Both the position numbers and the translations under genes were made by a program. Shown here piece by piece: positions 7,765 to 49,700 of a DNA stretch of 64,000 bases. Below the pieces are notes generated by a model. The model did no database searches, was not told the origin of the DNA, and worked only from the letters and a program-made list of their open reading frames with translations. The stretch lies in the NCBI GenBank assembly GCA_036398175.1, contig DASWHL010000050.1, positions 29,571 through 93,570 of the forward strand, in the 5' to 3' direction. Origin of the DNA: Gemmatimonadales bacterium. GTDB lineage: Bacteria; Gemmatimonadota; Gemmatimonadetes; Gemmatimonadales; GWC2-71-9. Within the stretch, counting starts at the first letter, position 1. Each line of letters starts with the position of its first letter.

Positions 7765-8052
7765 TCAGATGCCGCGGGAGCCCTCGTTCTGCGGCCCGGT
7801 CTGCGTCAGCACCTTCCGCACGAACCAGCACGTGGGGATGACCGTCAGATCCTGCTCGCGTGCCCAGGCGAGCGCGTGATGGGCGAGCCGCGTGGCAATG
7901 CCCCGGCCGCGCAGGGTGTGAGGGGTCCAGGTGCTCGCGTAGTCCACCGTGCGCTCGTCCACGAACCGGTAGGCGAGATAGGCGACCTCGCCGTTCAGCT
8001 CGAGCCAGAAGCGGCGGCCGGGGTCATGCCGGATTGGCGGCACGGGAGACAT
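7765..8052 (-). CDS. small GNAT-family N-acetyltransferase (YjdJ-like)
   Basis: Only the last 95 aa of the 230-aa track ORF look real: RRFWLELNGEVAYLAYRF...HTLRGRGIATRLAHHALAWAREQDLTVIPTCWFV. ATG at 8052. Confidence 0.7.
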   Translation of the reverse strand: MSPVPPIRHDPGRRFWLELNGEVAYLAYRFVDERTVDYASTWTPHTLRGRGIATRLAHHALAWAREQDLTVIPTCWFVRKVLTQTGPQNEGSRGI

Positions 8053-8327
8053 GCGCTGAACGTGGATGACCCGGGGTGGCGCGCGCAAGCGCGGTTGGCT
8101 CACCTGGCGCGGATCTCCGACCGCTTCAGGGTCCCGTCGGTCATGCCGCTTGCGGCGGCGCGGAACCGGGTGCAAGGTTAGCCGCGACCCGACGCACGGC
8201 GGCGGTTGCTCCGAGCTACTGCCGAGACCCCCGACGATGTGACCGCCAGGAGCCTCCCCGCCGCTCCAGTGACAGCATCGGACCGCCGCTGGATTCCGAG
8301 TCCCGAGCACGGGAGAGAGGAGTGGCC

Positions 8328-8648
8328 ATGTTCTGGCGCGAACGTCCCCGAGTTGGTCCCCTGATTGGTCTGGCGGCGATGCTGGCCGGGCTGGCGGCCT
8401 GCACCCGACTTCCCCAGCCGATGAATCTGGAACAGGGCGGAATTGAAGTCGATTCACAAACGCTTCTGAGAATGCCCGGCTCCATCCCGTTGGCCTGGGG
8501 GAACCTGGTGTCCGTCACCCTCGACCCGATCAACCGCAACGACTTCCGACTGTGGTTCCAGGATGACGCTGGGGAGATTCGCGTGCTGGGCATAAAGTCC
8601 CGCACCCACGAGCTCTGGACGGCCGCGCTGGTGATCCACCGCGACTGA
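8328..8648 (+). CDS. lipoprotein, unknown function
   Basis: ATG 8328 is preceded by GGAGAGAGGAG. Lipobox LAGLAAC. 106 aa. Confidence 0.65.
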   Translation: MFWRERPRVGPLIGLAAMLAGLAACTRLPQPMNLEQGGIEVDSQTLLRMPGSIPLAWGNLVSVTLDPINRNDFRLWFQDDAGEIRVLGIKSRTHELWTAALVIHRD

Positions 8649-8660
8649 GGAGGCAGGACC

Positions 8661-8897
8661 ATGGAACGACTACCCAGCCTCGTGCTTCGAGGGCTGTTTC
8701 TCGTGGCCCTCGTGCTCGGCGGCCTCGCCCTGTGGGAGAAGGCCGCGAACATCCTGGGCTTCACCTTGACGTTCGTCTTCGGGCTCGATCCGTCCCGGCT
8801 GCTGGAGTGGGCCGCGATCGTCCTGCTGTTCGTCATCGTGCTGCTCTTGCGGGAGATCAAGCATCAGACCGGTGGTGCCCGGCCAGCGGGACCGTAG
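8661..8897 (+). CDS. small membrane protein (2 predicted TM helices)
   Basis: 78 aa; RBS GAGGAGG upstream; LFLVALVLGGLALW and AAIVLLFVIVLLL. Lies 12 nt after the preceding lipoprotein gene. Confidence 0.6.
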   Translation: MERLPSLVLRGLFLVALVLGGLALWEKAANILGFTLTFVFGLDPSRLLEWAAIVLLFVIVLLLREIKHQTGGARPAGP

Positions 8898-9150
8898 GCC
8901 ATCCGCGTCGTTGACGCCGGTTGGCTCCGCAGGCGCACCGAACCCCGCTTGGCCGCGGGGCGCTACACGTCGCCCGGATGGGGGCGACCCGACGGTACCG
9001 CTTACCCGTGTCCGGCCCCCGCGCCGCGACCCGTCGTGAATTGCGGGGCTGCCCGTGGGCTACCCACATGCGTCAACGACGGTTGCCCGGTCCGGCACGA
9101 CCTCGGCACGTACCAACGACGCCCGTACGCAATCGCCAGCGATATCAGAG

Positions 9151-9222
9151 TTGCCCCCCCAGGATTCGAACCTGGATTCCCGGAGCCAAAGTCCGGTGTC
9201 CTAGCCATTGGACGAGAGGGCA
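9151..9222 (-). tRNA. tRNA-Gln (anticodon UUG)
   Basis: Folded by hand. Acceptor UGCCCUC/GGGGGCA (U1-A72, one G-U pair). D stem GUCC/GGAC. Anticodon stem CCGGA/UCCGG with loop CUUUGGC. T arm CCAGG-UUCGAAU-CCUGG. Discriminator A. No encoded CCA. Confidence 0.9.
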
Positions 9223-9261
9223 GGGAGCTTGACGCTTCAATCTAAGGTCGGATGGGGGAAT

Positions 9262-9346
9262 CGTGAAACGTGAAACGTGAAACGTGAAACGTGGCTACCC
9301 CCCGGCACGCGTTTCACGTCTCACGGTTCACGTATCGCGTGTCACG
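9262..9346. repeat. heptamer array CGTGAAA x4 facing inverted degenerate TNTCACG x5
   Basis: CGTGAAA at 9262, 9269, 9276 and 9283. After a 22-nt spacer come TTTCACG, TCTCACG, GTTCACG, TATCGCG and TGTCACG (9312-9346). The right arm overlaps the last codons of ispE. Confidence 0.85.
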
Positions 9347-10272
9347 ACCTCCACTCCCGGCACCGCGCGCGTGGCCGTCCCGATCAGCCGCCAGTCCCGT
9401 TCCCCCAGCTCCGCCGCCGCGCCGTCGCGGTCGGCCGCGTTGCGGTAGATGGCGATCAGGGCCGAGCCGGATCCCGACAGGCGTGCGAGCAGCGGGCGGG
9501 TCAGGCACAGCCGCTCGAAGAGGTCGCGCAAGGCCGGTTCCTTGCCGAACACGGGCATCTCGAAGTCGTTGCCGCCGAGCCGCGCGATCCCGCCCCACGT
9601 GGTGAGCGCGTCGTGCTCGAGCACCACCGCGCCCCGGCCCTGTGACCAGTCGCGCCCCTGGCTCAGCAGCTCGTAGGCCTTGCCCGTGTTGATCCCGAAG
9701 GACGGCACGACCAGCAGAACAGGCGCGGACGGCGGCGGCGGGAGGCGGAACATCCGTTCGCCATGCCCCCACGCGAGCGCAAAGGGCGCTCCCGACGCGA
9801 GAAACGGCACGTCGCTGCCGAGCCGCGCCGCCATCTGGAGGATCTCGTGCCGCGGGACCGCGTTCCCGGCGAGCGCGTTCACCGCGTGCAGCGCCGCGGC
9901 CCCGTCCGCCGAGCCGCCGCCCAGCCCCGCGCCCACCGGGATGTGCTTGACGAGGTGCAACCGCACCCCGAATCGCCGGTTGGTGGCGTCGAGCACCATG
10001 GCTGCGGCCCGGTAGGCCAGATTGGATTCGACCGCGCCCGTGTCCGAGCCCTCGACCGCCAGCGCGATCCCGCGCTCGACGCGGTCCACCGTGAGGTCGT
10101 CCGCCAGCTCGAGCAGCGTGAACAGCGTTTCCAGCGCGTGATACCCGGTGGACTCCCGCGCCAGGATGCGGAGCAGGAGGTTGGCCTTGGCCCGCGCCCG
10201 AGCGACGACACGATCGGGGGAAGGAGGGCCAGAGGAATCCCGGGATTGCCCAAGCGGATCGCTGGCGCTCAC
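9328..10272 (-). CDS. ispE: 4-diphosphocytidyl-2-C-methyl-D-erythritol kinase
   Basis: RARAKANLLLRIL, HLVKHIPVGAGLGGGSADGAAAL (GHMP kinase motif). GTG start at 10272, inside the 8-mer array. Confidence 0.9.
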   Translation of the reverse strand: MSASDPLGQSRDSSGPPSPDRVVARARAKANLLLRILARESTGYHALETLFTLLELADDLTVDRVERGIALAVEGSDTGAVESNLAYRAAAMVLDATNRRFGVRLHLVKHIPVGAGLGGGSADGAAALHAVNALAGNAVPRHEILQMAARLGSDVPFLASGAPFALAWGHGERMFRLPPPPSAPVLLVVPSFGINTGKAYELLSQGRDWSQGRGAVVLEHDALTTWGGIARLGGNDFEMPVFGKEPALRDLFERLCLTRPLLARLSGSGSALIAIYRNAADRDGAAAELGERDWRLIGTATRAVPGVEVVTRDT

Positions 10273-10353
10273 GCCTTCACGTCCTCACGTCCTCACGTCC
10301 TCACGTCCTCCCGTCGCTCCCGTCGCTCCCGTCGCTCCCGTCGTTCCCGCCGC
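10269..10353. repeat. adjacent tandem arrays: TCACGTCC x5 (8-mer) then TCCCGTCGC x5 (9-mer)
   Basis: 8-mers at 10269 (degenerate), 10277, 10285, 10293 and 10301. 9-mers at 10309, 10318, 10327, 10336 and 10345 (the last two degenerate). Confidence 0.9.
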
Positions 10354-11370
10354 GCCCCTCAGATCCCGCATATGCAGATTCGCCCGCCACAGGGACCACA
10401 ACCCCAGCAGCGTGATCGGCAGAAACCCGGTGATGTGATACCCGATGGCGAGGGACACCGCGGAGGACGCCGCGACGCCGTACAACGCCAGCGACGCGCG
10501 CGTGACGCCCTCGAACACGCCGAAGAAGCCGGGCGTGGACGGCACCGCCACGCCGAATGCCAGGAGCCCCTGGAGCACGAGCGCCGTCCCCCAGGGCAGC
10601 GACAGGCCGAACGCGACGAACGCGAGCGCGAACGACGCCGCGTTGGTGAGCCACAGGATCAGCGACCAGAACAGCACGGCGCCCAGTCGGCCGGGGGCCC
10701 GCAGCGCGGAGAGGCCATCGAGGATGCCGTCCACCATGCCGAGCATCCGGTCCGCCCATCGCGCGGGCAGCAGACGCTGGAGCGCGGCGTGCGCGAGTCG
10801 CCGCGTGAGCGCGGGTTGCCAGACCACGGCGACCGCGACGACGAACACCGAGCCGAACAGCACGGCGCCGCCCAGCGCGATGCGGCTCAAGGGCATGCCC
10901 TGGACGGTGGCGGCCGTGGTGAATCCGCCCGCCAAGAAGCCCACCACGAGAAGGCCCACGAGGAAGAGCCCGTCGAATACCCGCTCGACGGCCACCGACG
11001 CCAGGGCGGTGGTGAACCGTACGCCCGTCAGGGACCGCGCCGCGTAGGCCCGCGCCACCTCACCCGCCCGCGCGGGCAGGAGGTTGTTGGCCATGAACCC
11101 GATGGCGGTGGCGTGCCACAGGGGTCCAACGGGCAGCACGGCTCCCTGGTCCCGCAGCAGATAGCGCCAGCGGATGGTGCGGAGCGGGAACGTGAGCGTG
11201 GCGCCCGCCGCGGCGGCCATCAGCCAGCCGAGCCGCGCGCTCCGGATCTCGTGCCAGACCTCGCGGAGCGACACGTCGTGCAGCGCCCACCAGAGCAGCA
11301 GGATCGAGATGACGAGCCCGACCGCGGCCGGGAGATGTGAGCGGCGACTACGCGGCGTCGGCGGCGCCAA
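10285..11370 (-). CDS. UPF0104 / lysylphosphatidylglycerol-synthase-TM-region-like membrane protein
   Basis: 361 aa, polytopic; LLLWWALHDVSLREVWHEIRSARLGWL..., typical of flippase-like UPF0104 proteins. The C-terminal tail GATGATGATG is encoded by the 9-mer array. TTG start overlaps the upstream gene by 23 nt. Confidence 0.75.
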   Translation of the reverse strand: MAPPTPRSRRSHLPAAVGLVISILLLWWALHDVSLREVWHEIRSARLGWLMAAAAGATLTFPLRTIRWRYLLRDQGAVLPVGPLWHATAIGFMANNLLPARAGEVARAYAARSLTGVRFTTALASVAVERVFDGLFLVGLLVVGFLAGGFTTAATVQGMPLSRIALGGAVLFGSVFVVAVAVVWQPALTRRLAHAALQRLLPARWADRMLGMVDGILDGLSALRAPGRLGAVLFWSLILWLTNAASFALAFVAFGLSLPWGTALVLQGLLAFGVAVPSTPGFFGVFEGVTRASLALYGVAASSAVSLAIGYHITGFLPITLLGLWSLWRANLHMRDLRGAAGTTGATGATGATGGREDVRT

Positions 11371-22626: not shown

Positions 22627-23927
22627 GGCGGCGCGACTTCCTCGGCGCCGTGGGGGCCGCCGTGATCGGCGGAACGCTGGATGCATCCGGTCATCCGGTC
22701 ATCCCGTCATCCCGTCCATCCTCCGCGGGATCGCTCCTCCTCCCCATGGACGACGCCCAGAGCGACCACCTCAAGGCCTACGGCCTGGTCTATCGGGCCC
22801 TGCAACGCGGCGGCACGGGGGAATGGCTGCTCAACTTCCGCGGCGGGAGCTTCCTGCTGCCGGCGGACGGGGCAACGCAGCGCGACGCGGCGCTCGCCGG
22901 CGTGCGGGCCCAGGCCGTCGGCGATGGGGACGTGACGGAGATGCGCGGCCAGATTGCCGCTTCCAACATGGACGTGATCCCGCTCGAGAAGGCGCCGCTC
23001 GTGGCGGTCTACGCGCCGCCGAACGCGGCCCCGTGGGACGATGCCGTGACGATGGCGCTGCAATACGCCGGCATCGAGTTCGCGCGCGTCTGGGATGGCG
23101 ACGTGATGCGCGGCGGCCTCCAGCGCTACGACTGGCTGCACCTGCACCACGAGGACTTTACCGGCCAGTACTCCAAGTTCTTCCTGACCTACAGCGGGAC
23201 CACGTGGCTTGGCGACATGGTGCGCCGCAATCAGGAGATGGCGCGCGGACTCGGGCTCGCGGACGTTCCCGCCCTGAAAAAGGCCGTGGCGCGCCGGATC
23301 CGGGACTACGTGGACGGCGGCGGCTTCCTGTTCGCCATGTGCGCGGCCACCGAGACGCTGGAGCTGGCGCTCGCGGCGGACGCGGTGGATATCGCGGCAC
23401 CGTTCGCGGACGGCACCCCGGTGGACCCGCAGGCCAGCGCCAAGCTCCACTGGGACCGGACGCTCGCGTTCCAGGGGGCCGAGCTGGAGCTGTCGCCCGC
23501 CATCGCGACGTTCTCGGACATTGACGGCCATCAGGTGAATCACCCGGGCCGGCGGCAGCCGCTGGGGGCGTACCGGCTGTTCGCCTTCTCGGCCAAGATT
23601 GATCCGGTGCCCACGATGCTCGTGCAGTCCCATCGCGATATCCTCCCCGACTTCTACGGGCTCACGACCTCGTTCCGGCGGGACCGGCTGAAGCCGGGGG
23701 TCACGGTACTGGCGGACGAGCAGGGCGCGCCGTGGGTGAAGTACATCCGCGGGGATTTCGGCAAGGGCACGTGGACGTTCTTCGGCGGACACGACCCCGA
23801 GGACCCGCAGCATCAGATCGGTGATCCGCCCACGGACCTGTCGCTCCACCCGCATTCGCCGGGCTACCGGCTTATCCTCAACAACGTCCTGTTCCCGGCG
23901 GCCAAGAAGCGCGAGTTGAAGACATGA
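22623..23927 (+). CDS. Tat-signal exported protein, unknown function (possible DJ-1/GATase1-like core)
   Basis: GTG 22623 (GTGA overlap); twin-arginine signal RRRDFLGAVGAAVIGG. Mature part: LLLPMDDAQSDHLKAYGLVYRAL...GGGFLFAMCAATETL. The 633-aa track ORF is an upstream over-extension. Confidence 0.7.
   Translation: MRRRDFLGAVGAAVIGGTLDASGHPVIPSSRPSSAGSLLLPMDDAQSDHLKAYGLVYRALQRGGTGEWLLNFRGGSFLLPADGATQRDAALAGVRAQAVGDGDVTEMRGQIAASNMDVIPLEKAPLVAVYAPPNAAPWDDAVTMALQYAGIEFARVWDGDVMRGGLQRYDWLHLHHEDFTGQYSKFFLTYSGTTWLGDMVRRNQEMARGLGLADVPALKKAVARRIRDYVDGGGFLFAMCAATETLELALAADAVDIAAPFADGTPVDPQASAKLHWDRTLAFQGAELELSPAIATFSDIDGHQVNHPGRRQPLGAYRLFAFSAKIDPVPTMLVQSHRDILPDFYGLTTSFRRDRLKPGVTVLADEQGAPWVKYIRGDFGKGTWTFFGGHDPEDPQHQIGDPPTDLSLHPHSPGYRLILNNVLFPAAKKRELKT
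22684..22715. repeat. 8-mer tandem array CATCCGGT x2 + CATCCCGT x2 inside CDS
   Basis: Units at 22684, 22692, 22700 and 22708. They encode the linker GHPVIPSSRPS just after the Tat signal. Confidence 0.85.
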
Positions 23928-30024: not shown

Positions 30025-31341
30025 TCATGGCTGGGGATGAGGAGCGGCAAGCCGGACCAGGCTCTCCTCGCGGCCCACGGCCCAGAGCAGCACGTTCACC
30101 GGCTCGGAGACCGTCTGGCCGGTGAGCGCGATGCGCACGGGTTGCATCACCTTGCCGGCGCCTACCCCGAGCGCCGCGGCGAGGTCCCGCAGCTCCGCCT
30201 CGAGACGGTCGGGCTCCCAGGCATCTGCGGCGATCGCGGCCAGGCGGTCGCGCACGGCGGTGAGCGCGACGCGGTATCCCTCCGGGTCCTTCGCTACGGC
30301 GGCCCGGGCCTTCTCGTCGTCGGTGGGCACCTGCCGGCGGTCCACCCGGACGCCCACCCGTTCCGCCAGCTCGAGCGTCGTGCGGCACCGGCCGCGGATG
30401 GCCTCCATGCTCCGGACCAGCCGTTCCTCCGCCACCGCGTCCGGGTCCACGCCCCGTGCCCGCAGCAGCGGCGCGATCAGCGTGCCCAGCTCGGGGAGCG
30501 GCATGTGACTCAGGTACTGGCCGTTCATCCACTCCAGCTTGGTCATGTCGAAGACGGCGCTCGTCTTCTGGACGCGCTCGATCGCGAACGCGGCCACCAG
30601 CTCGTCCATCGCGAAGAACAGCTCGCGATCGTCGCCCGGATTCCAGCCGAGCAGCGCCAGGAAGTTGCGCATGGCGGCGGGGAGGATGCCCATGGCCTCG
30701 TAGTCGCCGACCGCGGTGGCGCCGTGCCGCTTGGAGAGTTTCTTCCCGTCCTGCCCGTGCAGCATGGGCAGATGGGCGAACACGGGCGCCGGCACGCCGA
30801 ACGCGCGGTAGACCGCGATCTGTTTGGGCGTGTTGGAGACGTGGTCCTCGCCCCGCATGACGTGAGTGATGCGCATGTCAATGTCGTCGCACACCACGCT
30901 GAAGTTGTAGGTGGGCGTGCGGTCCGAGCGCAGGATCACCCAGTCCTGGATGTCGCGTCCCTGAAAGCGGATGCGCTCGTAGACGGCGTCGTCCCAGGCG
31001 ATCTCCGCGTCCGGCATCCGGAACCGCACGGCGCCATCGTCGAGGTAGGCCGTGCCGTCCGCCACCAGGCGATCGGCCAGCTCCCGGTGCCGGGCCAGGC
31101 GCGCGCCCTGGAACACGACCTCCTCATCCCAGTCGAGTCCGAGCCAGGTGAGCCCATCGAGGATCACCTGGGTGTGGGTCTCGGACGAGCGCTCGCGGTC
31201 GGTGTCCTCGATCCGCAGCAGGACGGTGCCGCCGAGCTTTCGGGCAAACAGCCAGTTGAACAGGGCTGTGCGGGCCCCGCCCACGTGCAGGTATCCGGTG
31301 GGTGAGGGCGCAAAGCGGACGCGGGGAGGCGAGGTGGTCAT
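30025..31341 (-). CDS. gltX: glutamate--tRNA ligase
   Basis: Start moved to ATG 31341; RVRFAPSPTGYLHVGGARTALFNWLFARK (HIGH-type), KLSKRHG (KMSKS). Confidence 0.93.
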   Translation of the reverse strand: MTTSPPRVRFAPSPTGYLHVGGARTALFNWLFARKLGGTVLLRIEDTDRERSSETHTQVILDGLTWLGLDWDEEVVFQGARLARHRELADRLVADGTAYLDDGAVRFRMPDAEIAWDDAVYERIRFQGRDIQDWVILRSDRTPTYNFSVVCDDIDMRITHVMRGEDHVSNTPKQIAVYRAFGVPAPVFAHLPMLHGQDGKKLSKRHGATAVGDYEAMGILPAAMRNFLALLGWNPGDDRELFFAMDELVAAFAIERVQKTSAVFDMTKLEWMNGQYLSHMPLPELGTLIAPLLRARGVDPDAVAEERLVRSMEAIRGRCRTTLELAERVGVRVDRRQVPTDDEKARAAVAKDPEGYRVALTAVRDRLAAIAADAWEPDRLEAELRDLAAALGVGAGKVMQPVRIALTGQTVSEPVNVLLWAVGREESLVRLAAPHPQP

Positions 31342-31385
31342 GGCGCCGTAACGGTCGCCGCCGGCCCGGACCGGGTCAACCCCGC

Positions 31386-31601
31386 TCATCGGAGCCGCAG
31401 GTCGGCGAGGAGCGGCGCGTGACCGGACCCGAGGTTCGGGCCGAACCGGGAGCGCACCTCGATCCAGACGTCGTCGGCCCAGAAACGCCCGCGGGCCAGG
31501 CGCACGCGATACGCGCGCCGGGCGCACCGCACGACGAGGTCGGTGGGGCGGGGTGCGCTCCAGAAGTGGGAGAACGACGCGACAAGACGGGGGGAGAACA
31601 C
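31386..31601 (-). pseudogene. possible C-terminal remnant of an endonuclease/exonuclease/phosphatase (EEP) family gene
   Basis: 71-aa ORF with strongly GC-rich third codon positions. It ends ...GSGHAPLLADLRLR, resembling the EEP terminal SDHxPxxxxL motif. Its 5' end abuts or overlaps the tRNA-Ser 3' end, so no room remains for the N-terminal roughly 180 aa. Confidence 0.35.
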
Positions 31602-31691
31602 GGAGAGGGGGGGATTCGAACCCCCGATAGAGTTTTTAGACCCTATAACGGTTTAGCAAACCGCCGCCTTCAGCCACTCGGCCACCTCTCC
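31601..31691 (-). tRNA. tRNA-Ser (anticodon GCU)
   Basis: GGAGAGGUGGCCGAGUGGCUGAAGGC..., anticodon loop UUGCUAA, long variable arm, T arm GGGGG-UUCGAAU-CCCCC, acceptor GGAGAGG/CCUCUCC, discriminator G. Confidence 0.9.
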
Positions 31692-31700
31692 ATACAGACA

Positions 31701-31732
31701 GACGGCGAGACGGCCAGACGGCGAGACGGCCA
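31701..31732. repeat. 16-mer tandem GACGGCGAGACGGCCA x2 (subfamily 1b)
   Basis: Exact copies at 31701-31716 and 31717-31732, 9 nt upstream of the tRNA-Ser 5' end. Same word as the arms at 1447/1527. Confidence 0.9.
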
Positions 31733-31812
31733 GAATCCACGGTCTGCTGCGGGCCGTAATGTCACCCCTCCCGGGGGATAAGACAACCCGGGAGGGGAAG
31801 GGTGAGGGATGG

Positions 31813-33925: not shown

Positions 33926-33982
33926 GGCGGCGCGTTCGGAGGGCGATGGCGGGGTGGTCCGGTGGGCCGCCCCGCTTGTTGC

Positions 33983-34010
33983 GTGCAGGGTGCAGCGTGC
34001 AGGGTGCAGC
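33983..34010. repeat. heptamer array GTGCAG(G/C) x4
   Basis: GTGCAGG GTGCAGC GTGCAGG GTGCAGC, 58 nt upstream of the gatE ATG. Confidence 0.9.
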
Positions 34011-34068
34011 GAGCCTCGGCGTCGCCAAATGCCAAAACCCCAGGCCCGTCACTACATTTCCCACCGCC

Positions 34069-36138
34069 ATGACCCCTGCCGCCGCGGCCTTCCCGGGCAT
34101 TCGCCCCCCGTCCGACGTCAACCCGCGGACCGAGCCCGTTCTGGACTTCCCGGACCGGGAGTATGGGTCCCTGGCACCGGCGGACTACGAGGCGCTGGGC
34201 TTTCTGGGCGGCCTCGAAGTGCACCAGCAGCTGCTCACGCGGCGAAAGCTGTTCTGCCGCTGTCCCGCGGGGCGCTACGTAGACCGCGCCGACGGCGAGG
34301 TGCTCCGCCACATGCGGCCCACGCTGAGCGAGCTGGGCGAGTACGACGGGACCGCGTTGATGGAGTTCAAGACGCGCAAGGAGATCGTCTATCTCCTCGA
34401 CCGCGGCTCGGTGTGCACGTACGAGCTGGACGACACGCCGCCGTTCCCCATGGACGACGAGGCCATTGACATCGCGATTGGCGTCGCCCAACTGCTCAAC
34501 CTGAATCTCGTGGCCGAGCTGCACGTGATGCGGAAGCAGTACCTCGACGGCTCCATCCCCACGGGGTTCCAGCGCACCGCCATGGTGGGCCTGACGGGCC
34601 AGATCCCGTTCCGCGTGCCCGAGCTTGGTGTGGACCGCGCGCTGTCCATCCGCCAGCTGTCGCTGGAAGAGGACTCCTGCCGCGAGGTGAGCGATGTGGG
34701 GCACCGGGTCACGTTCCGCACGGACCGGCTGGGCATGCCGCTCACCGAGGTCGTGACCGAGCCCGAGTTCCTCACCCCGGAAGAGATGCAGGCGGGCGGC
34801 CGATTGCTGGCGCAGGTGGTACGGGCCACCGGCCGCGTGCGCCGCGGGCCGGGTGCCGCCCGGCAGGACGTGAACGTCTCTGTCGCGGGCGGCCGCCGCG
34901 TCGAGATCAAGGGGGTGGACAACCATCGGTTCCTGCCGCGGCTCGTCCACAACGAGGGGTACCGCCAGCTCAACCTTCTGCGCGTGCGGGCCGAGCTGCG
35001 GCGCCGTGGCGTGACCGGCACGTCCATGGCGCTCCCCGCCAAGGGGCTGCCGTGGGAGTGCTCCGCGCTCGTCGCCGACGTGAGCCGCCTGTTCGACCGG
35101 TCGCGGCACTCGGCGCTCCGCGCGGCGCGCGAGGTGGGGATGACCGTGTGCGCCGTCCGCCTGCCGGGCTTTGCCGGCCTGCTCGCGCACCGCACGCAGC
35201 CCGGGCTCACGTTCGCGCACGAGATCGCGGAGCGGATCCGCGTCATTGCGTGCCCGGCGCATCACCGGTTTCTCGCGCATTCGGATGCGGCCGACGACAC
35301 GGCCATCGCCGCGCGGCGCTGGCGGGACGTCCGCGCCGCCGTCGGCGCAGGCGCGGACGACGCGGTCGTCGTCGTGTGGGCGGACGCTCCGGACGCCGCA
35401 ACCGCCGCGCGCGAGGTCCTGATCCGCGCGCAGGACGCCCTGGCGGGCGTGCCGGCCGAGACGCGCCAGGCCAATCACGATGGCACGACCGGCTTCGAGC
35501 GCATCCTGCCCGGGGCCGACCGCATGTACCCGGACACCGACACGCCGCCCATCCCGATCCCCGACGCGACGATCGAGCGCATCCGGGTGTCCCTGCCCGA
35601 AACCCCGTGGGCGCGCGCGGAGCGCTATTGCGGGCTGGGCCTGGCCCCGGCGCGGGCCCAGCGGCTGGCCGCGGCGCCCTGGGCCGACGTGTTCGACGGC
35701 GCCGCGCCGCCGGCGGGCAATCTGGCCCGCCGCCTGGCCGCGAGCCTTGCCAAGCGGCTGCCGTACCACGTGCGGGCAGGCCGCCGGGTTCCGGACGCCG
35801 CCGGCGCGGTATTGCGGGAGGCACTCGCCCGCATCGCGGCGGGAGAGAGTCGCGCCGAGGCGCTCGACCGCATCGTGGACGCCGCGGTCATGAGGCCCGG
35901 CGCGCCGCCCGCGGAGGTGCTGGCGCCGTTCGCGCCGCCCCCGCCCGCGGACGCCAACCAGCTGGTGGAGCGCGCGGGGGACGCCGCCCGACGGATGACG
36001 GGCCGGGGGCCCGACACGCTGCTGCGGTGGGCGATGGGCGAGGTGATGCCGCGGCTGCTGGGGCGGGCCGATCCGCGCGACGTGCGGCGCCGGCTCGAGG
36101 AGCGCCTCCTCGGCGTCGGCGCGGGGGCCGGCCAGTGA
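34069..36138 (+). CDS. gatE: Glu-tRNA(Gln) amidotransferase subunit E, archaeal type
   Basis: Start moved to ATG 34069; GLEVHQQL..KLFCRC, RHMRPTLSELGEYDGTALMEFK (GatE-specific insertion), MRKQYLDGSIPTGFQRT, LSLEEDSCRE, RTDRLGMPLTEVVTEPE, ARQDVNVSVAGGRRVEIKGV. Confidence 0.8.
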   Translation: MTPAAAAFPGIRPPSDVNPRTEPVLDFPDREYGSLAPADYEALGFLGGLEVHQQLLTRRKLFCRCPAGRYVDRADGEVLRHMRPTLSELGEYDGTALMEFKTRKEIVYLLDRGSVCTYELDDTPPFPMDDEAIDIAIGVAQLLNLNLVAELHVMRKQYLDGSIPTGFQRTAMVGLTGQIPFRVPELGVDRALSIRQLSLEEDSCREVSDVGHRVTFRTDRLGMPLTEVVTEPEFLTPEEMQAGGRLLAQVVRATGRVRRGPGAARQDVNVSVAGGRRVEIKGVDNHRFLPRLVHNEGYRQLNLLRVRAELRRRGVTGTSMALPAKGLPWECSALVADVSRLFDRSRHSALRAAREVGMTVCAVRLPGFAGLLAHRTQPGLTFAHEIAERIRVIACPAHHRFLAHSDAADDTAIAARRWRDVRAAVGAGADDAVVVVWADAPDAATAAREVLIRAQDALAGVPAETRQANHDGTTGFERILPGADRMYPDTDTPPIPIPDATIERIRVSLPETPWARAERYCGLGLAPARAQRLAAAPWADVFDGAAPPAGNLARRLAASLAKRLPYHVRAGRRVPDAAGAVLREALARIAAGESRAEALDRIVDAAVMRPGAPPAEVLAPFAPPPPADANQLVERAGDAARRMTGRGPDTLLRWAMGEVMPRLLGRADPRDVRRRLEERLLGVGAGAGQ

Positions 36139-37526
36139 GCGCCGCCGACGTGTACCGCGGCTATCGCGATCCCTGCCGCGCCGTCATGCAGCGCCTGGGG
36201 TTCCGTGTCTGGAGCGAAGTGCGCATACACACGACGCGCGGGACGTTCGAGGGCCTGGTCCTGCCGCGCTCCGAAACCAGCGACGAGCTGCACTTCGTCC
36301 TCAAGCTCGGCACCGGCTACAACATCGGCATCCGGCACGACACGGTGCACGGCGTGGAGGAGCTGGGATTCCGCGAGGCGGTGTACAAGATCCCGGAGCA
36401 GGAGTTCCCGCACGATCCGGCGCACCCGCGCGTGAAGCTCTACGGGACCGGCGGCACGATCGCGTCGCGGCTCGACTACCGCACCGGCGCCGTGATTCCC
36501 GCGTTCACGCCCGGTGAGCTGTACGGCTCGGTGCCCGAGCTGGCCGATATCTGCAATCTCGAGACGGAAAAGCTGTTCGGCGTGTTCTCGGAAAACATGG
36601 GCCCCGAGCAGTACCTCGTGCTCGCCGAGAAGGTGGGCGAGGCCATCCGCGAGGGATACGCCGGCGTGGTCATCGGGCACGGCACGGACACGATGCACCA
36701 CACCGCGGCGGTGCTGAGCTTCATGGTGCAGAGCCCGCCGGTCCCGGTGGTGATGGTGGGAAGCCAGCGGTCGTCGGACCGGCCGTCGTCGGACGCGGCC
36801 CGGAACCTCATTGCCGCCACGTGGACCGCGGCGCACGGCCCCATTGCCGAGGTGATGGTGTGCATGTTCGGGCCCACGTCCGACCGGTACAACCTGCTGC
36901 ACCGCGGCACGCGCGTCCGGAAGATGCACAGCTCCACCCGGAGCACGTTCCGGACGATCGGGGACATTCCGCTCGCCCTGGTGCAGGACGGCACGCTCAC
37001 ACCGCTCCAGGACGACTGGCGGCCGCGGCGCGCGGACCGGGACGTCACGGTGCGGGCGCGGTACGACGAACGGGCGACACTGCTCTACTATTACCCCGGC
37101 ATGTGCCCCGACGTGCTCGACGCCATGGTCGAGAAGGGCTATCGGGGGATCGTGATCGCGGGCACGGGCCTGGGCCACGTGAACCGCAAGATCTACCCGG
37201 CGCTCGAGCGGGCGCGCGACGCGGGCGTGCAGATGTACATGACGCTCCAGACCCTGTGGAGCTTCGTGCAGATGCAGGTGTACGAAACGGGGCGGGAGAT
37301 CCTCCAGCTCGGCGTCATGCCGCTCGCGAACATGATGCCCGAGGTCGCCTTCATCAAGCTTGGCTGGGCGCTGGGCGTGCATCCGGACGACCCGGACGCC
37401 GTGCGGACCCTCATGACCACCCCCCTCGCGGGCGACATGACGGAGCGGGAACCGCATGACGGGTATCTCATCTTCCAGGGTGGGGTGCCGGAGATCAAAG
37501 AGTTCCTTGGGAGTGTGTGGAGATGA
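36135..37526 (+). CDS. gatD: Glu-tRNA(Gln) amidotransferase subunit D, archaeal type (asparaginase-like)
   Basis: GTG 36135 (GTGA overlap with the gatE stop). N-domain VRIHTTRGTFEGLVLP, then LYGTGGTIASRLDYRTGA, VIGHGTDTMHHTAAVLSF, VVMVGSQRSSDRPSSDA. The 824-aa track ORF is an over-extension. Confidence 0.8.
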   Translation: MSAADVYRGYRDPCRAVMQRLGFRVWSEVRIHTTRGTFEGLVLPRSETSDELHFVLKLGTGYNIGIRHDTVHGVEELGFREAVYKIPEQEFPHDPAHPRVKLYGTGGTIASRLDYRTGAVIPAFTPGELYGSVPELADICNLETEKLFGVFSENMGPEQYLVLAEKVGEAIREGYAGVVIGHGTDTMHHTAAVLSFMVQSPPVPVVMVGSQRSSDRPSSDAARNLIAATWTAAHGPIAEVMVCMFGPTSDRYNLLHRGTRVRKMHSSTRSTFRTIGDIPLALVQDGTLTPLQDDWRPRRADRDVTVRARYDERATLLYYYPGMCPDVLDAMVEKGYRGIVIAGTGLGHVNRKIYPALERARDAGVQMYMTLQTLWSFVQMQVYETGREILQLGVMPLANMMPEVAFIKLGWALGVHPDDPDAVRTLMTTPLAGDMTEREPHDGYLIFQGGVPEIKEFLGSVWR

Positions 37527-37530
37527 GAAT

Positions 37531-37605
37531 CGTGCAGCGTGCAGCGTGTAGCGTGCAGCGGGGTGAGGTGTCCCGCTCATCCCGCTATGCCGCGCATCCC
37601 GCTCA
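37531..37605. repeat. heptamer array CGTGCAG x4 followed by TCCCGCTCA-type 9-mers
   Basis: CGTGCAG at 37531, 37538, 37545 (CGTGTAG) and 37552. TCCCGCTCA at 37571, TCCCGCTAT at 37580, TCCCGCTCA at 37597. The array fills the gatD-glnS spacer. Confidence 0.9.
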
Positions 37606-37626
37606 TCCGGTGGTCGAGGAGTCGCG

Positions 37627-39321
37627 ATGACCGACGGCGCTCCCGAACGGGGGCTCGACTTCATCCGCGCCATGGTCGGCCGCGACGTCGCCGCCGGGAA
37701 GTGGGGGGGGCGGGTGGCGACGCGGTTTCCGCCGGAGCCCAACGGCTACCTGCACATCGGGCACGCCAAGTCCATCTGCCTGAATTTCGGGCTGGCGGCG
37801 GAATACGGGGGGACGTGCAACGTCCGGTTCGACGACACCAACCCGCTCACCGAGGATCAGCAGTACGTGGACGCCATCAAGGACGACGTCCGCTGGCTCG
37901 GCTTCGATTGGGCGGATCGCGAATACTACGCCTCGGACTACTTCGAACAGCTCTACGACTTCGCGGTCATCCTGATCCGGAAGGGCGGGGCGTACGTGGA
38001 CTCGCAGAACGAGGAGCAGATCCGCACGTCACGGGGCACGATCCGGCGGGCGGGCACGGAGAGCCCGCATCGGACTCGCTCGGTGGACGAGAACCTCGAC
38101 CTGTTCCGCCGGATGCGGGAAGGGGAGTTCCCCGACGGCGCGCACGTGCTGCGCGCGAAGATTGACATGGCGCATCCCAACTTCCTGATGCGGGACCCGC
38201 TGCTCTTCCGGATCCGCCACGCGGCCCATTACCGTCGCGGGGATGCGTGGTGCATCTACCCGCTGTACGACTTCACGCACTGCCTTTCGGACAGCATCGA
38301 GCGGATCACGCATTCGCTCTGCACGCTGGAGTTCAAGGACAACCGCGATCTGTACGACTGGATCGTGCGGGAAGTGGGGATCGAGCAGCCGCCGGAGCAG
38401 ACCGAGTTCGCGCGGCTGAACCTCGACTACACGGTCCTCTCCAAGCGGAAGCTCGTCCGGCTGGTGCGCGAGGGACACGTGGCGGGCTGGGACGATCCGC
38501 GGATGCCCACGATCGCGGGGCTGCGGCGGCGCGGGGTCACGCCCGAGGCCATCCGCGCCTTCGCGGACGGCGTGGGCGTGGCGCGCGTGGACAGCCGCGT
38601 GGAGTTGGGCAAGCTCGAGCACGCCATCCGGGACGAGCTCAACATGCGCGTCCCGCGCGTGCTCTGCGTGCTGCGGCCGCTCAAGGTGGTCGTCACGAAC
38701 TATCCCGAGGGGCAGGTCGAGGAGCTGGATGCGCCGTCCTACCCGCACGACGTGCCGAAGGAAGGCTCCCGCAGGCTGCCCTTCACCCGGGAGCTGTACA
38801 TCGAGCGGGACGACTTCCTGGAGGACCCGCCGAAGAAGTTCTTCCGGCTGGCGCCGGGACGCGAGGTGCGGCTCCGCTACGCGTACTTCGTCACGTGCAC
38901 CGACGTCGTGAAGGACGCGGCGGGGACCGTCGTCGAGCTGCGCTGTACGTACGATCCGGCCACCCGGGGCGGCGACGCGCCGGACGGACGCAAGGTGAAG
39001 GGCACGATCCACTGGGTGTCGGCCACGGAATCACTGTCCTGTGACGTGCGGCTGTACGACCGGCTGTTCACGCAACCGGATCCGGACGACGTGCCGGACG
39101 ACCGGGAATTCACCGCGACGCTCAATCCGGAGTCGCTGGTGGTGCTCCGCGAGGCGCGGGTCGAGCCGAGCGTGGGGCAGGACCCGCCGGGCACGCGGTA
39201 CCAGTTCGAGCGCCAGGGCTACTTCGTGAGCGATACCGTGGACTCGAAGCCGGATAGCTTGGTGTTCAATCGGACCGTCCAGTTGCGCGACACCTGGGCG
39301 AAAGTGCAGGCGAAGGGGTAG
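37627..39321 (+). CDS. glnS: glutamine--tRNA ligase
   Basis: 564 aa; RFPPEPNGYLHIGHAKSICLNFG, NVRFDDTNP, TVLSKRKL (KMSKS-like), C-terminal beta-barrel anticodon-binding region. Confidence 0.93.
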   Translation: MTDGAPERGLDFIRAMVGRDVAAGKWGGRVATRFPPEPNGYLHIGHAKSICLNFGLAAEYGGTCNVRFDDTNPLTEDQQYVDAIKDDVRWLGFDWADREYYASDYFEQLYDFAVILIRKGGAYVDSQNEEQIRTSRGTIRRAGTESPHRTRSVDENLDLFRRMREGEFPDGAHVLRAKIDMAHPNFLMRDPLLFRIRHAAHYRRGDAWCIYPLYDFTHCLSDSIERITHSLCTLEFKDNRDLYDWIVREVGIEQPPEQTEFARLNLDYTVLSKRKLVRLVREGHVAGWDDPRMPTIAGLRRRGVTPEAIRAFADGVGVARVDSRVELGKLEHAIRDELNMRVPRVLCVLRPLKVVVTNYPEGQVEELDAPSYPHDVPKEGSRRLPFTRELYIERDDFLEDPPKKFFRLAPGREVRLRYAYFVTCTDVVKDAAGTVVELRCTYDPATRGGDAPDGRKVKGTIHWVSATESLSCDVRLYDRLFTQPDPDDVPDDREFTATLNPESLVVLREARVEPSVGQDPPGTRYQFERQGYFVSDTVDSKPDSLVFNRTVQLRDTWAKVQAKG

Positions 39322-44692: not shown

Positions 44693-46369
44693 TTATGCCC
44701 GGCCCATGCTCCGCCGCACCCCCCATACCGCGCCAAGCACCGCCAGCACCATCAGCGGCCCCGTGACGAGCATGAACAGCGTCCGCGTCCGCGTCGCATC
44801 GGCGCTGCGGATGGTCGCCGCCTCGTCCCGGATGCCGGCGAGGTGGCCGAGTACATCCGCGTAGCCGTACCACCAGGCGTAGTCCGGACTCATGTGGAAC
44901 GCGCCCTTGTAGCTCTTGAGCGCGGAGAAGAAGAACATGTCGAAGTAGTCGCGCTCGATGGGCGTGACGTCGTAGTAGAGGCTCGCCGGCGAATGCTGCG
45001 CCGTGATCTGGTCCAGCTCGATGGCCGTGAACCGCGGGCCCGGGAGCAGCCCCGCCGACCGGGTGGCATGGCTGGGTCGGATCAGGCCGTCGTCGTAGAG
45101 CCCCTTCAGAATGTCCCGCGCCTCGATCACGAGCGCGTCGCCCGCCAGTTTGTGCGCGTCGGCCGACGCGAGGTAGCCGCGTGCCTTGTCCTCCGCGTGG
45201 CACACCAGGCAGACCTTGATCATCTCGTCCCGCTTGGTCTGGTTTTCGGGCGTCTGCGTGATGTCCGTAAGTTGCCCCAGCGCCGGCTGGACGCCCATGC
45301 CCCAGATGATCTTCCGGGTCATGTTGTGCGACACCGACCGCCGGTCGTTCCCGTCCACGTACACCATGTGACAGTACGCGCACGTGGGGGTCTCGTAGCG
45401 CGCGTCGGCCATGGGCGTGTTCCAGTCCCATGCGGCTCCGCGGGCCGTGTAGATGGAGCCGTGCTTGGACGACATGTACGCCTCGTAATTCGGGTGGTCC
45501 GGACCCATGTGGCAGGTGTAGCACGCCTCGGGCTTTTTGGCCTCCTCCAGACTGAAGGCGTGTCGCGTGTGGCAGGCGATGCAGCCGTTCCGGTACGTGA
45601 GCGAACTGCCGTCCACGTACTGCTGGAGGGAATCGCTCCAGTACTGATCGTCCGTCGCGCCCGCCTGCGCGTGGCACGGATCGCAACCCATCTCCATCAC
45701 TTTCCGCGGCATGTCCTTGTAGTGCGGCACGCTGATGTTCCGCTCCCAGTTTGCCCCCAGGCCGCCGGGGTCGGGCCCGTACGAGTGACCCGCGTCGAGC
45801 ACGTGCTCCTTGTAGATCTCGGCATGACACGAGGCACACACGGTCTCGGCCACCCGGCCCTTCGACGCCATGATGCGGTCGTGGTCGTTGCCGTGGCAGT
45901 CCGCACAGGTCATCGAGCGCTGGGCGTGCACGACCCGCGGGTTCTGCGTCCCGGCGCGGCCCATGGCGCTTCGCTCGTACTGCCAGACGATCGTGGGGTT
46001 GAGCCGGCGGTGGCAGTCGGCGCAGCCGGCGGGGCTCAGCTCCCCGCTCGGCAGGTCGGTGCGCAGGCGCGGCTGGGTCGTGGGGAGGCCCCGCAGGTAT
46101 CCGAGCATGCGCCCCGCCTCGGCGTCGCTCACGGCCTCCGCGGGGAACGCCGGCATGATGCCCCGCGGTGTGCGCATCTGCGCCAGGAACGCGGGGAGCG
46201 GCAGGGAAGTCCCGGCGAGCGAAGGGCCTACGCCGCCACGGGCGCTGGCGCCGTGACACCCGAGGCATCCCTTCTGGATGTACAGCGCCTCGGCGGAGGG
46301 CTGTTCCTGGCTCAGGGCCGCTCCCGGGAACACCGTAAGAACGACGAGGCAGAGGCGGACGATCATCAT
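44693..46369 (-). CDS. nine-heme c-type cytochrome: N-terminal monoheme domain + HAO-like octaheme module + C-terminal TM anchor
   Basis: Start moved to ATG 46369 (RBS GGAG, signal MMIVRLCLVVLTVFPGAALS). CXXCH x9: CLGCH, CADCH, CADCH, CASCH, CDPCH, CIACH, CYTCH, CAYCH, CLVCH. CYTCHMGPDHPNYEAYMSSKHG resembles the hydroxylamine oxidoreductase family. Tail LFMLVTGPLMVLAVLGAVWGV. Confidence 0.8.
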   Translation of the reverse strand: MMIVRLCLVVLTVFPGAALSQEQPSAEALYIQKGCLGCHGASARGGVGPSLAGTSLPLPAFLAQMRTPRGIMPAFPAEAVSDAEAGRMLGYLRGLPTTQPRLRTDLPSGELSPAGCADCHRRLNPTIVWQYERSAMGRAGTQNPRVVHAQRSMTCADCHGNDHDRIMASKGRVAETVCASCHAEIYKEHVLDAGHSYGPDPGGLGANWERNISVPHYKDMPRKVMEMGCDPCHAQAGATDDQYWSDSLQQYVDGSSLTYRNGCIACHTRHAFSLEEAKKPEACYTCHMGPDHPNYEAYMSSKHGSIYTARGAAWDWNTPMADARYETPTCAYCHMVYVDGNDRRSVSHNMTRKIIWGMGVQPALGQLTDITQTPENQTKRDEMIKVCLVCHAEDKARGYLASADAHKLAGDALVIEARDILKGLYDDGLIRPSHATRSAGLLPGPRFTAIELDQITAQHSPASLYYDVTPIERDYFDMFFFSALKSYKGAFHMSPDYAWWYGYADVLGHLAGIRDEAATIRSADATRTRTLFMLVTGPLMVLAVLGAVWGVRRSMGRA

Positions 46370-46576
46370 CGCGAGCTCCAACCGGGGGATAGCGCCCAAG
46401 CTACGGGTTCTCGAACGATCGGCAAATCGGCCGGCCGTGAATGCCGACTGTCGCGGTCGGCAATCATTCAGCGCGACTGTCGGATTGGGCCTGCGGCCCC
46501 CCCGCCCGTGACCCGCGTTTGCCCCATTGGGGATCGCGGCGTAGCCTACGATGAACCGACTGACCGGAGCGGACGC

Positions 46577-47785
46577 GTGCTCGACCACGAACGGATCTCC
46601 GCCAAACTGGGCAAGTTCCGCCCGTCCCTGACCCTTGCGCTCAAGCATCTCGTGGCCGCGCGCGTCGCGGCCGGGCTGCCTGTGCACGACTTCGGGTTGG
46701 GCGAAACGAAGGGCGACCTGGCGCCCCACGTGCGCGAAGCGGGTGAGCACGCGTTTCGGGCGGGAAAGACCATGTACGGCGATCCCGGCGGGCTGCCGGA
46801 GGTGCGCCAGGCCGTGCTCGAGTGGCTTGGGCTCCAGGCGGAGTACGGCGTGGACAACGTGGTGGTCACCGCCGGCGCCAAGCAGAGCCTGTTCAACACG
46901 TTTCTAGCCATCTGCAACCCCGCGGACGTGGTCCTGTTCGACGCGGCACCATGGGTGAGCTACCAGCCCCTGGCGGTAGCGGCGTACGCGACTCCCATCA
47001 TGGTGCTCCCCACGGCCGGGTTGGCCAACCACCTCAAGGTGACGCCCGACGACCTGCTCCGGAATCTCCGGATGCGGCCGCACGCCAAGCTCTTCCTGCT
47101 CAACAACCCGGTGAACCCCACCGCGCAGCTCTACACGGCGGACGAGGTGAACGCCCTGCTGGACGTGTGTGTCGAGCACCGGGTGTACTTCCTGCTCGAC
47201 CGCCTCTACTGGCGCATCGTGTTCGACGGCGTGCCGTTTCCGGAACCCCGCCTGGACGAGCGAACCAGGCCGTGGCTCATCCAGGTGGACGGCCTCTCCA
47301 AGAACTTCCGGCGGACGGGGGGGCTGCGCGTGGGCTGGTCCATCGGTCCCACGGACGTCACGGCGGCCATGGTGAACCTCCAGAGTCATTACACGGCGGG
47401 CCCGGCGGTGCCCACGCAGCTCGCCGCCGCCGCGGCCATTGGCGCCGAGTACGACCCCGAACTGGTCCGGGATCTCCAGGCCAAGCGGGATCTGTTGCAC
47501 CGCGAGGCGGCCGGGATGCCGCACGTGACCATCTGGCCCACGCCCGCCAGCTTCTACTCGTTCTGGGACGTGCGGCAGGCCTTCGGCCGGACGACCCCGG
47601 CGAGTGAGGTCCTCCGTACGTCGGACGACGTGGCCACCTATCTGATTCGAGAGGGCGGGGTCGTGACGGCGTCGGGTTCCGGGTTCATGCAGGATGGATA
47701 CCTGCGCCTGTCGTTCGCCACGCCGGACGAGACTATCCGCGGGGGGATGCGGGCTGCGCGGGAGGCGATGGCACGCCTGACGTAG
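46577..47785 (+). CDS. class I/II PLP-dependent aminotransferase
   Basis: GTG 46577 is in frame with the 980-aa track ORF, whose first 578 aa are antisense to the cytochrome gene. LNNPVNPT, GLSKNFRRTGGLRVGW. Confidence 0.8.
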   Translation: MLDHERISAKLGKFRPSLTLALKHLVAARVAAGLPVHDFGLGETKGDLAPHVREAGEHAFRAGKTMYGDPGGLPEVRQAVLEWLGLQAEYGVDNVVVTAGAKQSLFNTFLAICNPADVVLFDAAPWVSYQPLAVAAYATPIMVLPTAGLANHLKVTPDDLLRNLRMRPHAKLFLLNNPVNPTAQLYTADEVNALLDVCVEHRVYFLLDRLYWRIVFDGVPFPEPRLDERTRPWLIQVDGLSKNFRRTGGLRVGWSIGPTDVTAAMVNLQSHYTAGPAVPTQLAAAAAIGAEYDPELVRDLQAKRDLLHREAAGMPHVTIWPTPASFYSFWDVRQAFGRTTPASEVLRTSDDVATYLIREGGVVTASGSGFMQDGYLRLSFATPDETIRGGMRAAREAMARLT

Positions 47786-49653: not shown

Positions 49654-49663
49654 CGCCCGTCAC

Positions 49664-49700
49664 TCCCGTCGTTCCCGTCGCTCCCGTCGCTTCCCGTCGT
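49664..49700. repeat. 9-mer array TCCCGTCG(T/C) x4
   Basis: Units at 49664, 49673, 49682 and 49692. Same word as 10309-10353. Ends at the stop codon of the acyl-CoA synthetase gene. Confidence 0.85.

Follow-up and report, generated by a model that had tools for sequence, protein, structure and literature searches.

Predicted GatE and GatD subunits of an archaeal-type amidotransferase are encoded upstream of glutaminyl-tRNA synthetase in a Gemmatimonadales bacterium

Introduction

The tRNA-dependent amidotransferase (AdT) GatDE has been described as exclusively archaeal and as an "archaeal signature protein" (PMC2330236, 2008; PMC2811023, 2009; PMC8762117, 2022). The archaeal pathway is that of a host without glutaminyl-tRNA synthetase (GlnRS) that depends on GatDE together with a glutamyl-tRNA synthetase of the non-discriminating type (ND-GluRS), and no archaeal host of GatDE has been reported to encode GlnRS (PMC2330236). 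Here we describe a gatE-gatD gene pair in a 64-kb window (that is, the whole stretch of DNA that was analysed) from a metagenome-assembled genome (MAG) of the order Gemmatimonadales, the host being a soil-type bacterium. In contrast to the archaeal hosts, the host of this window encodes GlnRS, from a gene directly downstream of the pair, and the combination by which the archaeal pathway is defined is thus not what is found here.

The other AdT against which the locus can be compared is GatCAB. In Deinococcus radiodurans, Thermus thermophilus and Bdellovibrio bacteriovorus an AdT of this kind is kept beside the direct synthetase(s), as appears to be the case here, and is retained for asparagine synthesis (PMC4206432), whereas gene linkage at our locus points to glutamine and glutamate. 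The kinase subunits GatB and GatE are paralogues, alike in their cradle fold and in bearing a YqeY-like tail. However, the glutaminase of GatCAB consists of the amidase-type GatA together with GatC whereas the glutaminase encoded here is the asparaginase-type GatD, and GatE carries an insertion domain that sets it apart from GatB. The GatDE family and its chemistry are already known, and the NCBI pipeline already names the two proteins GatE and GatD. We found no paper describing a bacterial GatDE in the searchable literature (subscription literature lay outside that search).

Results

The gene pair encodes full-length GatE and GatD

An initial annotation of the window, made from the sequence alone, had proposed that two open reading frames (ORFs) overlapping at GTGA, and separated by 100 bp from glnS, encode archaeal-type GatE and GatD rather than GatB and an ordinary asparaginase. 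The ORFs, their coordinates (Table 1), the overlap (the GTG start codon of gatD overlaps the TGA stop codon of gatE) and the 100-bp gap were all borne out, and every motif that had been quoted is present in the translations. The gatE translation is a 100% match to an NCBI protein (P0001) annotated as GatE from a Gemmatimonadales MAG. When the products were scored with hidden Markov models (HMMs) of both families, as the annotation had proposed, GatE and GatD both passed the models for the archaeal-type proteins. In particular, GatE scored 470 bits against NF003107 and 419.5 bits against TIGR00134, above the curated NCBIfam equivalog cut-offs of 456 and 319.6, whereas the GatB models gave only 49–128 bits against cut-offs of 315–680 (the best being 128 against 338). 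Residues 39–681 of GatE align to GatE of Pyrococcus abyssi (1zq1_C, 317 bits) and of Methanothermobacter thermautotrophicus (2d6f_C, 311 bits), whereas GatB chains in the PDB cover residues 128–310 only. A GatB_N domain was found by Pfam. GatB is marked by the lack of an insertion domain and by a Lys-rich KxGKxK tail motif, whereas in the window protein the insertion domain is present and the GatB scores lie below cut-off. Thus, the first ORF encodes full-length GatE, not GatB.

The catalytic residues of GatE are intact. The Mg2+ ligands H15, E157 and E184 of M. thermautotrophicus GatE are essential by mutagenesis (PMC2330236), and they correspond to H52, E200 and E227 of the window protein, in which E201 and the motifs R265-x-D267-x-N269-x-S271 and E279-x-K281 are also present. 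Hardly any variation occurs at these residues among 111 bacterial and 80 archaeal-side sequences: most of the positions are identical throughout, and the others differ by at most one gap or one substitution. The AspRS-like (GAD) insertion, at approximately residues 310–460, is part of a contiguous alignment with 1zq1_C and 2d6f_C; weak PF02938 matches were found in close homologues, and the Pfam scan did not detect GAD in the window protein itself. An AlphaFold2 model of GatE had a mean pLDDT of 68.5, with the insertion, helical and tail domains above 80 (80–95 for the insertion) and a cradle domain that was poorly modelled because of a shallow alignment. A Foldseek search with this model returned archaeal GatE as the best match (1zq1_C, E = 2e-24), followed by GatB and then by AspRS and YqeY; the insertion matched bacterial AspRS (1eqr_A, probability 0.91) and the tail matched YqeY (8xjg), consistent with an alignment that extends to residue 681 through the YqeY-like tail.

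GatD scored 478 bits against TIGR02153 (cut-off 324) and 473 bits against NF003217 (cut-off 310), and Pfam identified GatD_N (PF18195), Asparaginase (PF00710) and Asparaginase_C (PF17763) domains. The protein aligns over its full length to 1zq1_A (379 bits) and 2d6f_A (370 bits), and T105 and T108 (TGGTIAS), T184-D185 (HGTDTM) and K263 (VRKMH) show no variation among 69 sequences. GatD is 62–86% identical across bacterial phyla, which indicates strong purifying selection. The second ORF therefore encodes a full-length GatD in which the catalytic residues are all kept. Taken against the archaeal structures (2D6F and 1ZQ1), the locus encodes the same two subunits, with the same order of domains in each and with the same Mg2+ ligands (H, E, E) and Thr/Thr-Asp/Lys residues.

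GatDE relatives form a bacterial clan

The 120 best database matches to GatE were 62–100% identical to it, and every one bearing an organism name came from Gemmatimonadota. When genomes were scanned, one for each GTDB species, 576 stretches proved to encode relatives, and the best 80 of the 576, which we examined as loci, were all bacterial, several of them on closed chromosomes. Closed chromosomes with a bacterial gatE-gatD pair include CP070722.1 and CP070823.1 (Gemmatimonadota), OY970178.1 (Eisenbacteria), OY970271.1 (Ignavibacteriales) and CP070718.1 (Phycisphaerales). Their hosts belong to Gemmatimonadota, Eisenbacteria, Krumholzibacteriota, KSB1, Ignavibacteriota/Melioribacteraceae, Bacteroidota, Chlorobiota, Cloacimonetes, Aminicenantes, Phycisphaerae and Myxococcota MAGs. 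A gatD gene was detected in 75 of 83 loci (the remaining 8 are short loci that end before gatD would be reached); in 68 of the 75 it comes immediately after gatE, in most cases with a start codon that overlaps the gatE stop, and in the other 7 it lies approximately 0.6–3.3 kb downstream. This adjacency, together with the overlap, suggests that the two products may form a complex.

In neighbour-joining trees (a distance-based method) of 193 GatE sequences, 113 formed one clan with a bootstrap value of 100/100. The clan contains all named bacterial sequences as well as all other representatives of 50% clusters that are at least 43% identical, and where these representatives are named (CSSED10-310 and Deltaproteobacteria) they too are bacterial. 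The adjacent archaeal sequences are those of the Asgard lineages Heimdall-, Thor- and Odinarchaeota. In the phylogeny that the initial annotation had called for, made here by neighbour joining only, the window GatE falls within a fully supported bacterial clan, with Asgard sequences nearest on the archaeal side. Identity to the archaeal proteins is only 31–39%, and the bacterial clan has signature residues of its own, namely Q196, C204, E206, T218, V229 and A263-A264 (T-I at this last pair in archaea). Residues A263-A264 adjoin the basic loop that reads the tRNA's first base pair (motif roles are from PMC2811023). A GatB-like proline in the tail ("GRADP") was considered as a marker of the bacterial clade and was rejected, being present in only 29 of 111 sequences.

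To root the trees, we used as outgroup three fragments of the GatB cradle that came from PDB alignments (neighbour joining, 189 columns, 200 replicates). In 188 of the 200 replicates this outgroup joined among archaeal sequences; the archaea were monophyletic in only 27 of 200. This placement points, tentatively because it comes from a neighbour-joining tree of 189 columns, to one ancient transfer of GatDE from archaea to bacteria. The horizontal acquisition that had been proposed as one reading of the locus is not a local or recent one: any archaea-to-bacteria transfer was ancient and clade-founding, given the native composition, the deep, exclusively bacterial clan and the many phyla that it spans. 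Indeed, the G+C content is approximately 0.70 along the whole window with no break at the gatE-gatD locus, and the pair is native in composition and not a recent import.

These observations also bear on whether the finding could be an artefact, in which an archaeal fragment was wrongly assembled into a bacterial bin, or a misidentification of GatB and an ordinary asparaginase of type I. Such a reading is favoured by the use of a MAG as source, by the score of GatD against the subfamily model for type I asparaginases, which it also passes (355 bits), and by the GatB_N domain that GatE shares with GatB. However, the genes lie within 64 kb of bacterial housekeeping genes of uniform G+C (the other window genes that were checked are pth, prs, ispE, pdxJ, nadA, nadC, recQ and acs), the same arrangement occurs on closed bacterial chromosomes, the GatB models stay far below cut-off whereas the equivalog models of GatE and GatD exceed theirs, and both the GatD_N domain and the GatE insertion are present. 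We regard an artefact or misannotation as so improbable, on grounds of context, closed chromosomes, HMM scores and domains, that we have excluded it.

A bona fide GlnRS and a GluRS are encoded nearby

The initial annotation had also held that a complete GlnRS and a nearby gltX would place both routes to Gln-tRNA(Gln) side by side, and this was upheld by the scores and pocket residues of GlnRS and by the score of the gltX product. GlnRS scored 719.5 bits against TIGR00440 (cut-off 426) and aligned over its full length with the P. aeruginosa (5bnz, 731 bits) and E. coli (683 bits) enzymes. The HIGH and VLSKRK motifs are present, and the residues aligned with R30, Y211, C229 and Q255 of the E. 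coli enzyme are conserved. The synthetase encoded downstream of gatD is, by these features, a bona fide GlnRS. Its best-scoring model is that of the Deinococcus-type GlnRS-YqeY fusion (NF011291, 934 bits), yet it is matched only over profile positions 13–560 of 769, the YqeY domain being absent. (Note that PGAP calls the window GlnRS a "glutamine--tRNA ligase/YqeY domain fusion protein", which is a misnomer.) A true GatB/YqeY-like tail does occur on some Gemmatimonadales GlnRS proteins of 776–803 aa (P0367, P0388 and P0389); at the window locus, the sole YqeY-like tail is that of GatE.

The gltX product scored 443 bits against TIGR00464 (cut-off 290). PDB alignments of this ORF begin at residues 61–69 and are preceded by an Arg/Pro-rich N-terminal extension of about 60 residues without homology, so that the true start is probably a Met near residue 63 (position ~31341). 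GlnRS is widespread in Gemmatimonadota, and gatE and the gene for GlnRS are found on the same contig in at least seven Gemmatimonadota assemblies, as judged from contigs of equal length (104251, 1783526, 26968, 110808, 93303, 37515 and 844200). AsnRS is encoded on both closed Gemmatimonadota chromosomes that carry gatE-gatD (in one of these, locus L002, it lies 4 kb from gatE), the co-occurrence of AsnRS and GatDE being shown in these other Gemmatimonadota genomes and not in that of the window. Neither the window nor the 1.23 Mb of related loci contained a second GatB-like match, although this is too little sequence for absence to be concluded, and the relevant KEGG orthology numbers were not found in the supplementary KEGG tables of Gemmatimonadota genomics papers.

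Linkage of gatE-gatD to glnS, gltX and a glnA-like gene

The position of gatE-gatD directly upstream of glnS, which had been remarked on at the outset, is real in the window but is not general: glnS follows gatD only in a subclade of Gemmatimonadales comprising the window and the related loci L004, L006, L008, L018 and L019, and in most bacterial loci gatE-gatD is not beside glnS. (In L030, from a Myxococcota MAG, and L052, from an Ignavibacteriae MAG, glnS is near the pair on the opposite strand.) In L006, L008, L018 and L019 the start of glnS overlaps the stop of gatD (as GTGA or ATGA), and gatE-gatD-glnS at these loci is predicted to be a translationally coupled operon. The window and L004, its closest relative, have instead a repeat-bearing gatD-glnS spacer of approximately 100 nt, and the 100-nt spacer of the window appears to be a derived state that arose by insertion. 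In five of the six glnS-linked loci gltX lies divergently upstream, with tRNA-Ser; in the sixth, L019, gltX was not detected. In the window gltX lies 2.5 kb from the gatE-gatD pair, and the tRNA-Ser(GCU) that lies between gltX and gatE is conserved in related Gemmatimonadales, being found in L004, L005, L006 and L018 as well.

In two other loci, L002 (a closed Gemmatimonadota chromosome) and L020 (an Eisenbacteria chromosome), a gene for a GlnA-like protein directly follows gatD. (This gene, at 13455–14852 in L002, where it overlaps the gatD stop, and at ~13529–14914 in L020, scores 152 bits against TIGR00653, below cut-off.) The genes linked to gatE-gatD, namely glnS, gltX and the glnA-like gene, are thus all related to glutamate or glutamine. 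Clustering of flanking ORFs found no other conserved neighbour, only lineage-specific ones (PhoH2, SSADH, an acyl-CoA dehydrogenase and Tag), with the qualification that the ORF caller was crude and also called antisense ORFs in this high-G+C DNA. The tRNA genes found in the related loci were tRNA-Ser, tRNA-Val and tRNA-Pro only, with none for Gln, Asn or Glu.

The linkage to glnS raises the idea that GatDE is a physical partner of GlnRS in a transamidosome-like complex, in which the YqeY-like tail of GatE might aid the binding of tRNA(Gln), or in which rare Glu-tRNA(Gln) errors of GlnRS might be corrected. GlnRS is a structural homologue of the archaeal ND-GluRS to which GatDE binds, the archaeal GatDE-GluRS complex having a KD of 100 nM (PMC2943598), and a score of 332 bits was obtained for the window GlnRS with the archaeal gltX model. 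The overlap of glnS with gatD in four genomes suggests stoichiometric co-expression, and the window GlnRS has no YqeY tail of its own, whereas P0367, P0388, P0389 and the Deinococcus GlnRS carry such a tail in cis for tRNA binding (PMC1865053). Nevertheless, gatE-gatD is located away from glnS in most bacterial loci, and conservation of the catalytic residues is complete in both GatD and GatE, of which a cofactor that did no more than bind tRNA would have no need. On balance we think a role of this kind improbable.

The pair may be a Glu-tRNA(Gln) amidotransferase that works in parallel with GlnRS

We lean, by a modest degree, towards the view that gatE-gatD specifies a Glu-tRNA(Gln) amidotransferase that would work in parallel with GlnRS, since the linked genes are related to glutamate and glutamine and since GatE has retained its insertion domain, which in the archaeal enzyme has been modelled to exclude AspRS and to allow a class I partner of the GluRS type (PMC2330236, PMC2943598). 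We infer from sequence what the reaction is, where its substrate comes from and what physiological part the enzyme plays. Specifically, in a GatDE heterotetramer, GatE would bind Glu-tRNA(Gln) and phosphorylate its gamma-carboxyl group with ATP and Mg2+ (a mechanism taken from PMC2330236), GatD would free ammonia from glutamine or asparagine, and the ammonia would pass through an internal tunnel to GatE, where amidation would yield Gln-tRNA(Gln). GatDE would be expressed together with GlnRS, such that the direct and indirect routes would operate in one cell, and GatDE would convert or clean up the Glu-tRNA(Gln) that GluRS produces, thereby furnishing a second supply of Gln-tRNA(Gln) that is flexible as to the amide donor.

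Several observations weigh against this assignment. Beside a genuine GlnRS the indirect route would not be needed for Gln-tRNA(Gln) and is formally redundant. Moreover, R380 of the window GluRS aligns with E. coli GluRS R350, a "discriminating" marker, and the arginine is kept in L004, L006 and L008; if the marker holds, little Glu-tRNA(Gln) would be made. (Note that this marker is known not to be dependable from one phylum to another (PMC3927822), and that the arginine was assigned by alignment to E. coli R350 and not directly to T. thermophilus R358.) In addition, the tRNA-Gln(UUG) encoded in the window has the pairs U1-A72, G2-C71 and C3-G70 and discriminator A73, and is in this respect of bacterial type, whereas the identity pair of tRNA(Gln) read by archaeal GatDE is A1-U72 (PMC2330236). 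Lastly, the GxxAxGx motif in the tail of archaeal GatE, which has been implicated in the rejection of tRNA(Asn) (PMC2811023), is absent: the columns that read G-x-x-A-x-G in archaea read P-D-T-L-L-R in the window protein and P-[ED]-x-[RK]-x-R in the bacterial consensus. The lack of conservation of this motif in the bacterial clade indicates that tRNA specificity may have changed.

The last two of these points are also what might be expected had GatDE been retuned to bacterial tRNAs and become mainly an Asp-tRNA(Asn) amidotransferase that serves tRNA-dependent asparagine synthesis. U1-A72 is common to bacterial tRNA(Asn) and tRNA(Gln) and is read by bacterial AdTs (PMC2330236), and the motif that would reject tRNA(Asn) has been replaced by a more basic one. 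There is, furthermore, precedent for an AdT that is kept for asparagine synthesis despite the presence of AsnRS and GlnRS (PMC4206432), and a role in glutamine synthesis looks dispensable given GlnRS and a possibly discriminating GluRS. However, the AspRS-like insertion, which has been modelled to clash with a non-discriminating AspRS (PMC2943598), is retained, the conserved linkages are to glnS, gltX and the glnA-like gene with none to aspS, and in L002 AsnRS is encoded close to gatE. We therefore consider a primary role in Asp-tRNA(Asn) amidation unlikely, and retain Glu-tRNA(Gln) amidation in parallel with GlnRS as the reading that we prefer.

Repeats and other features of the locus

The features of the locus are collected in Table 1. 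Two tandem heptamer arrays flank the gene pair, one upstream of gatE and the other upstream of glnS. A search for the heptamer pattern throughout the 64 kb gave six overlapping matches, all upstream of gatE or glnS, when 0.04 were expected, and the heptamer is partly kept in the gatD-glnS spacer of L004. The GTGCAG[G/C] arrays may act as a promoter or operator common to both genes. A promoter and terminator scan, an Rfam search and folding of the gatE and glnS leader regions found nothing. Tandem arrays of other 7–9-nt units in 4–9 copies, with a unit that differs each time, occur at 9258–9293, 10268–10357, 22684–22721, 31699–31734, 37571–37608 and 49656–49699, several of them beside tRNA genes or in spacers, and L006 and L019 also have tandem arrays upstream of gatE, with other units again.

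Table 1. Positions of genes, tRNA genes and repeats in the 64-kb window
Feature	Position	Strand	Description
gatE	34069..36138	+	689 aa from ATG at 34069; predicted tRNA-dependent kinase/transamidase subunit; domain order cradle, AspRS-like insertion, helical, YqeY-like tail
gatD	36135..37526	+	463 aa; predicted glutaminase/asparaginase-type amide-donor subunit
glnS	37627..39321	+	predicted glutaminyl-tRNA synthetase, 564 aa, without YqeY tail
gltX	30025..31527	-	predicted bacterial-type glutamyl-tRNA synthetase, divergent from gatE
tRNA-Ser(GCU)	31600..31692	-	between gltX and gatE; ARAGORN, Rfam tRNA 59.9 bits
tRNA-Gln(UUG)	9150..9222	-	ARAGORN; presumed substrate tRNA
Tandem heptamer GTGCAG[G/C] x4	33981..34011	+	TRF; 58–88 nt upstream of gatE start
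Tandem heptamer GTGCAGC x4	37531..37560	+	TRF; 67–96 nt upstream of glnS start, in gatD-glnS spacer
Tandem repeat TCCCGCTCA x4.3	37571..37608		after the GTGCAGC array in gatD-glnS spacer

The neighbouring genes had been described as encoding a D-aminoacylase and an M19 dipeptidase. The second description is in keeping with a Peptidase_M19 score of 330 bits, whereas the first is a family-level guess only, the product being an amidohydrolase of the Amidohydro_3 family that scores 191 bits against NF006560, under the cut-off of 340. Elsewhere in the window there is a pth-prs-tRNA-Gln(UUG)-ispE cluster (5407–10272), and a large multihaem c-type cytochrome, with domains of the Multi-haem_cyto, Cytochrome_CBB3 and paired CXXCH types, is encoded on the minus strand (44693–46750) adjoining nadA-nadC; the cytochrome is unrelated to GatDE.

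Discussion

What appears to be new here is a large bacterial clan of GatDE, its coexistence with GlnRS and AsnRS, a putatively coupled gatE-gatD-glnS operon and a presumed substrate tRNA of bacterial type. GatDE, as we find it, is a conserved two-gene unit, catalytically intact as judged by its residues, in many bacterial species of several phyla. The accepted picture of where each of the two types of amidotransferase occurs changes accordingly, and the use of GatDE as an archaeal marker, both in metagenome binning and in evolutionary arguments, is weakened.

A bolder scenario can be drawn from the same material, namely that a gatE-gatD(-glnS) module passed to an FCB-group ancestor from a donor that was Asgard-like or proto-eukaryotic, that GatDE and GlnRS hence share a history, and that GatDE is now in a transamidosome-like complex with GlnRS as the descendant of its archaeal-type GluRS partner. 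We think this very unlikely. Were it true, a stage in the passage from indirect to direct synthesis of Gln-tRNA(Gln) would survive in these genomes as a living intermediate.

The predicted activity also raises a problem of specificity, which is how a GatE that evolved for a tRNA(Gln) with A1-U72 reads a bacterial tRNA with U1-A72. In the organisms described here the two routes to Gln-tRNA(Gln), indirect and direct, would coexist naturally, which makes of them a system for study, and cultured Gemmatimonas would be usable for this purpose if it carries the genes. The transition from the indirect route to GlnRS, and the persistence of an AdT beyond that transition, would thereby become approachable by experiment.

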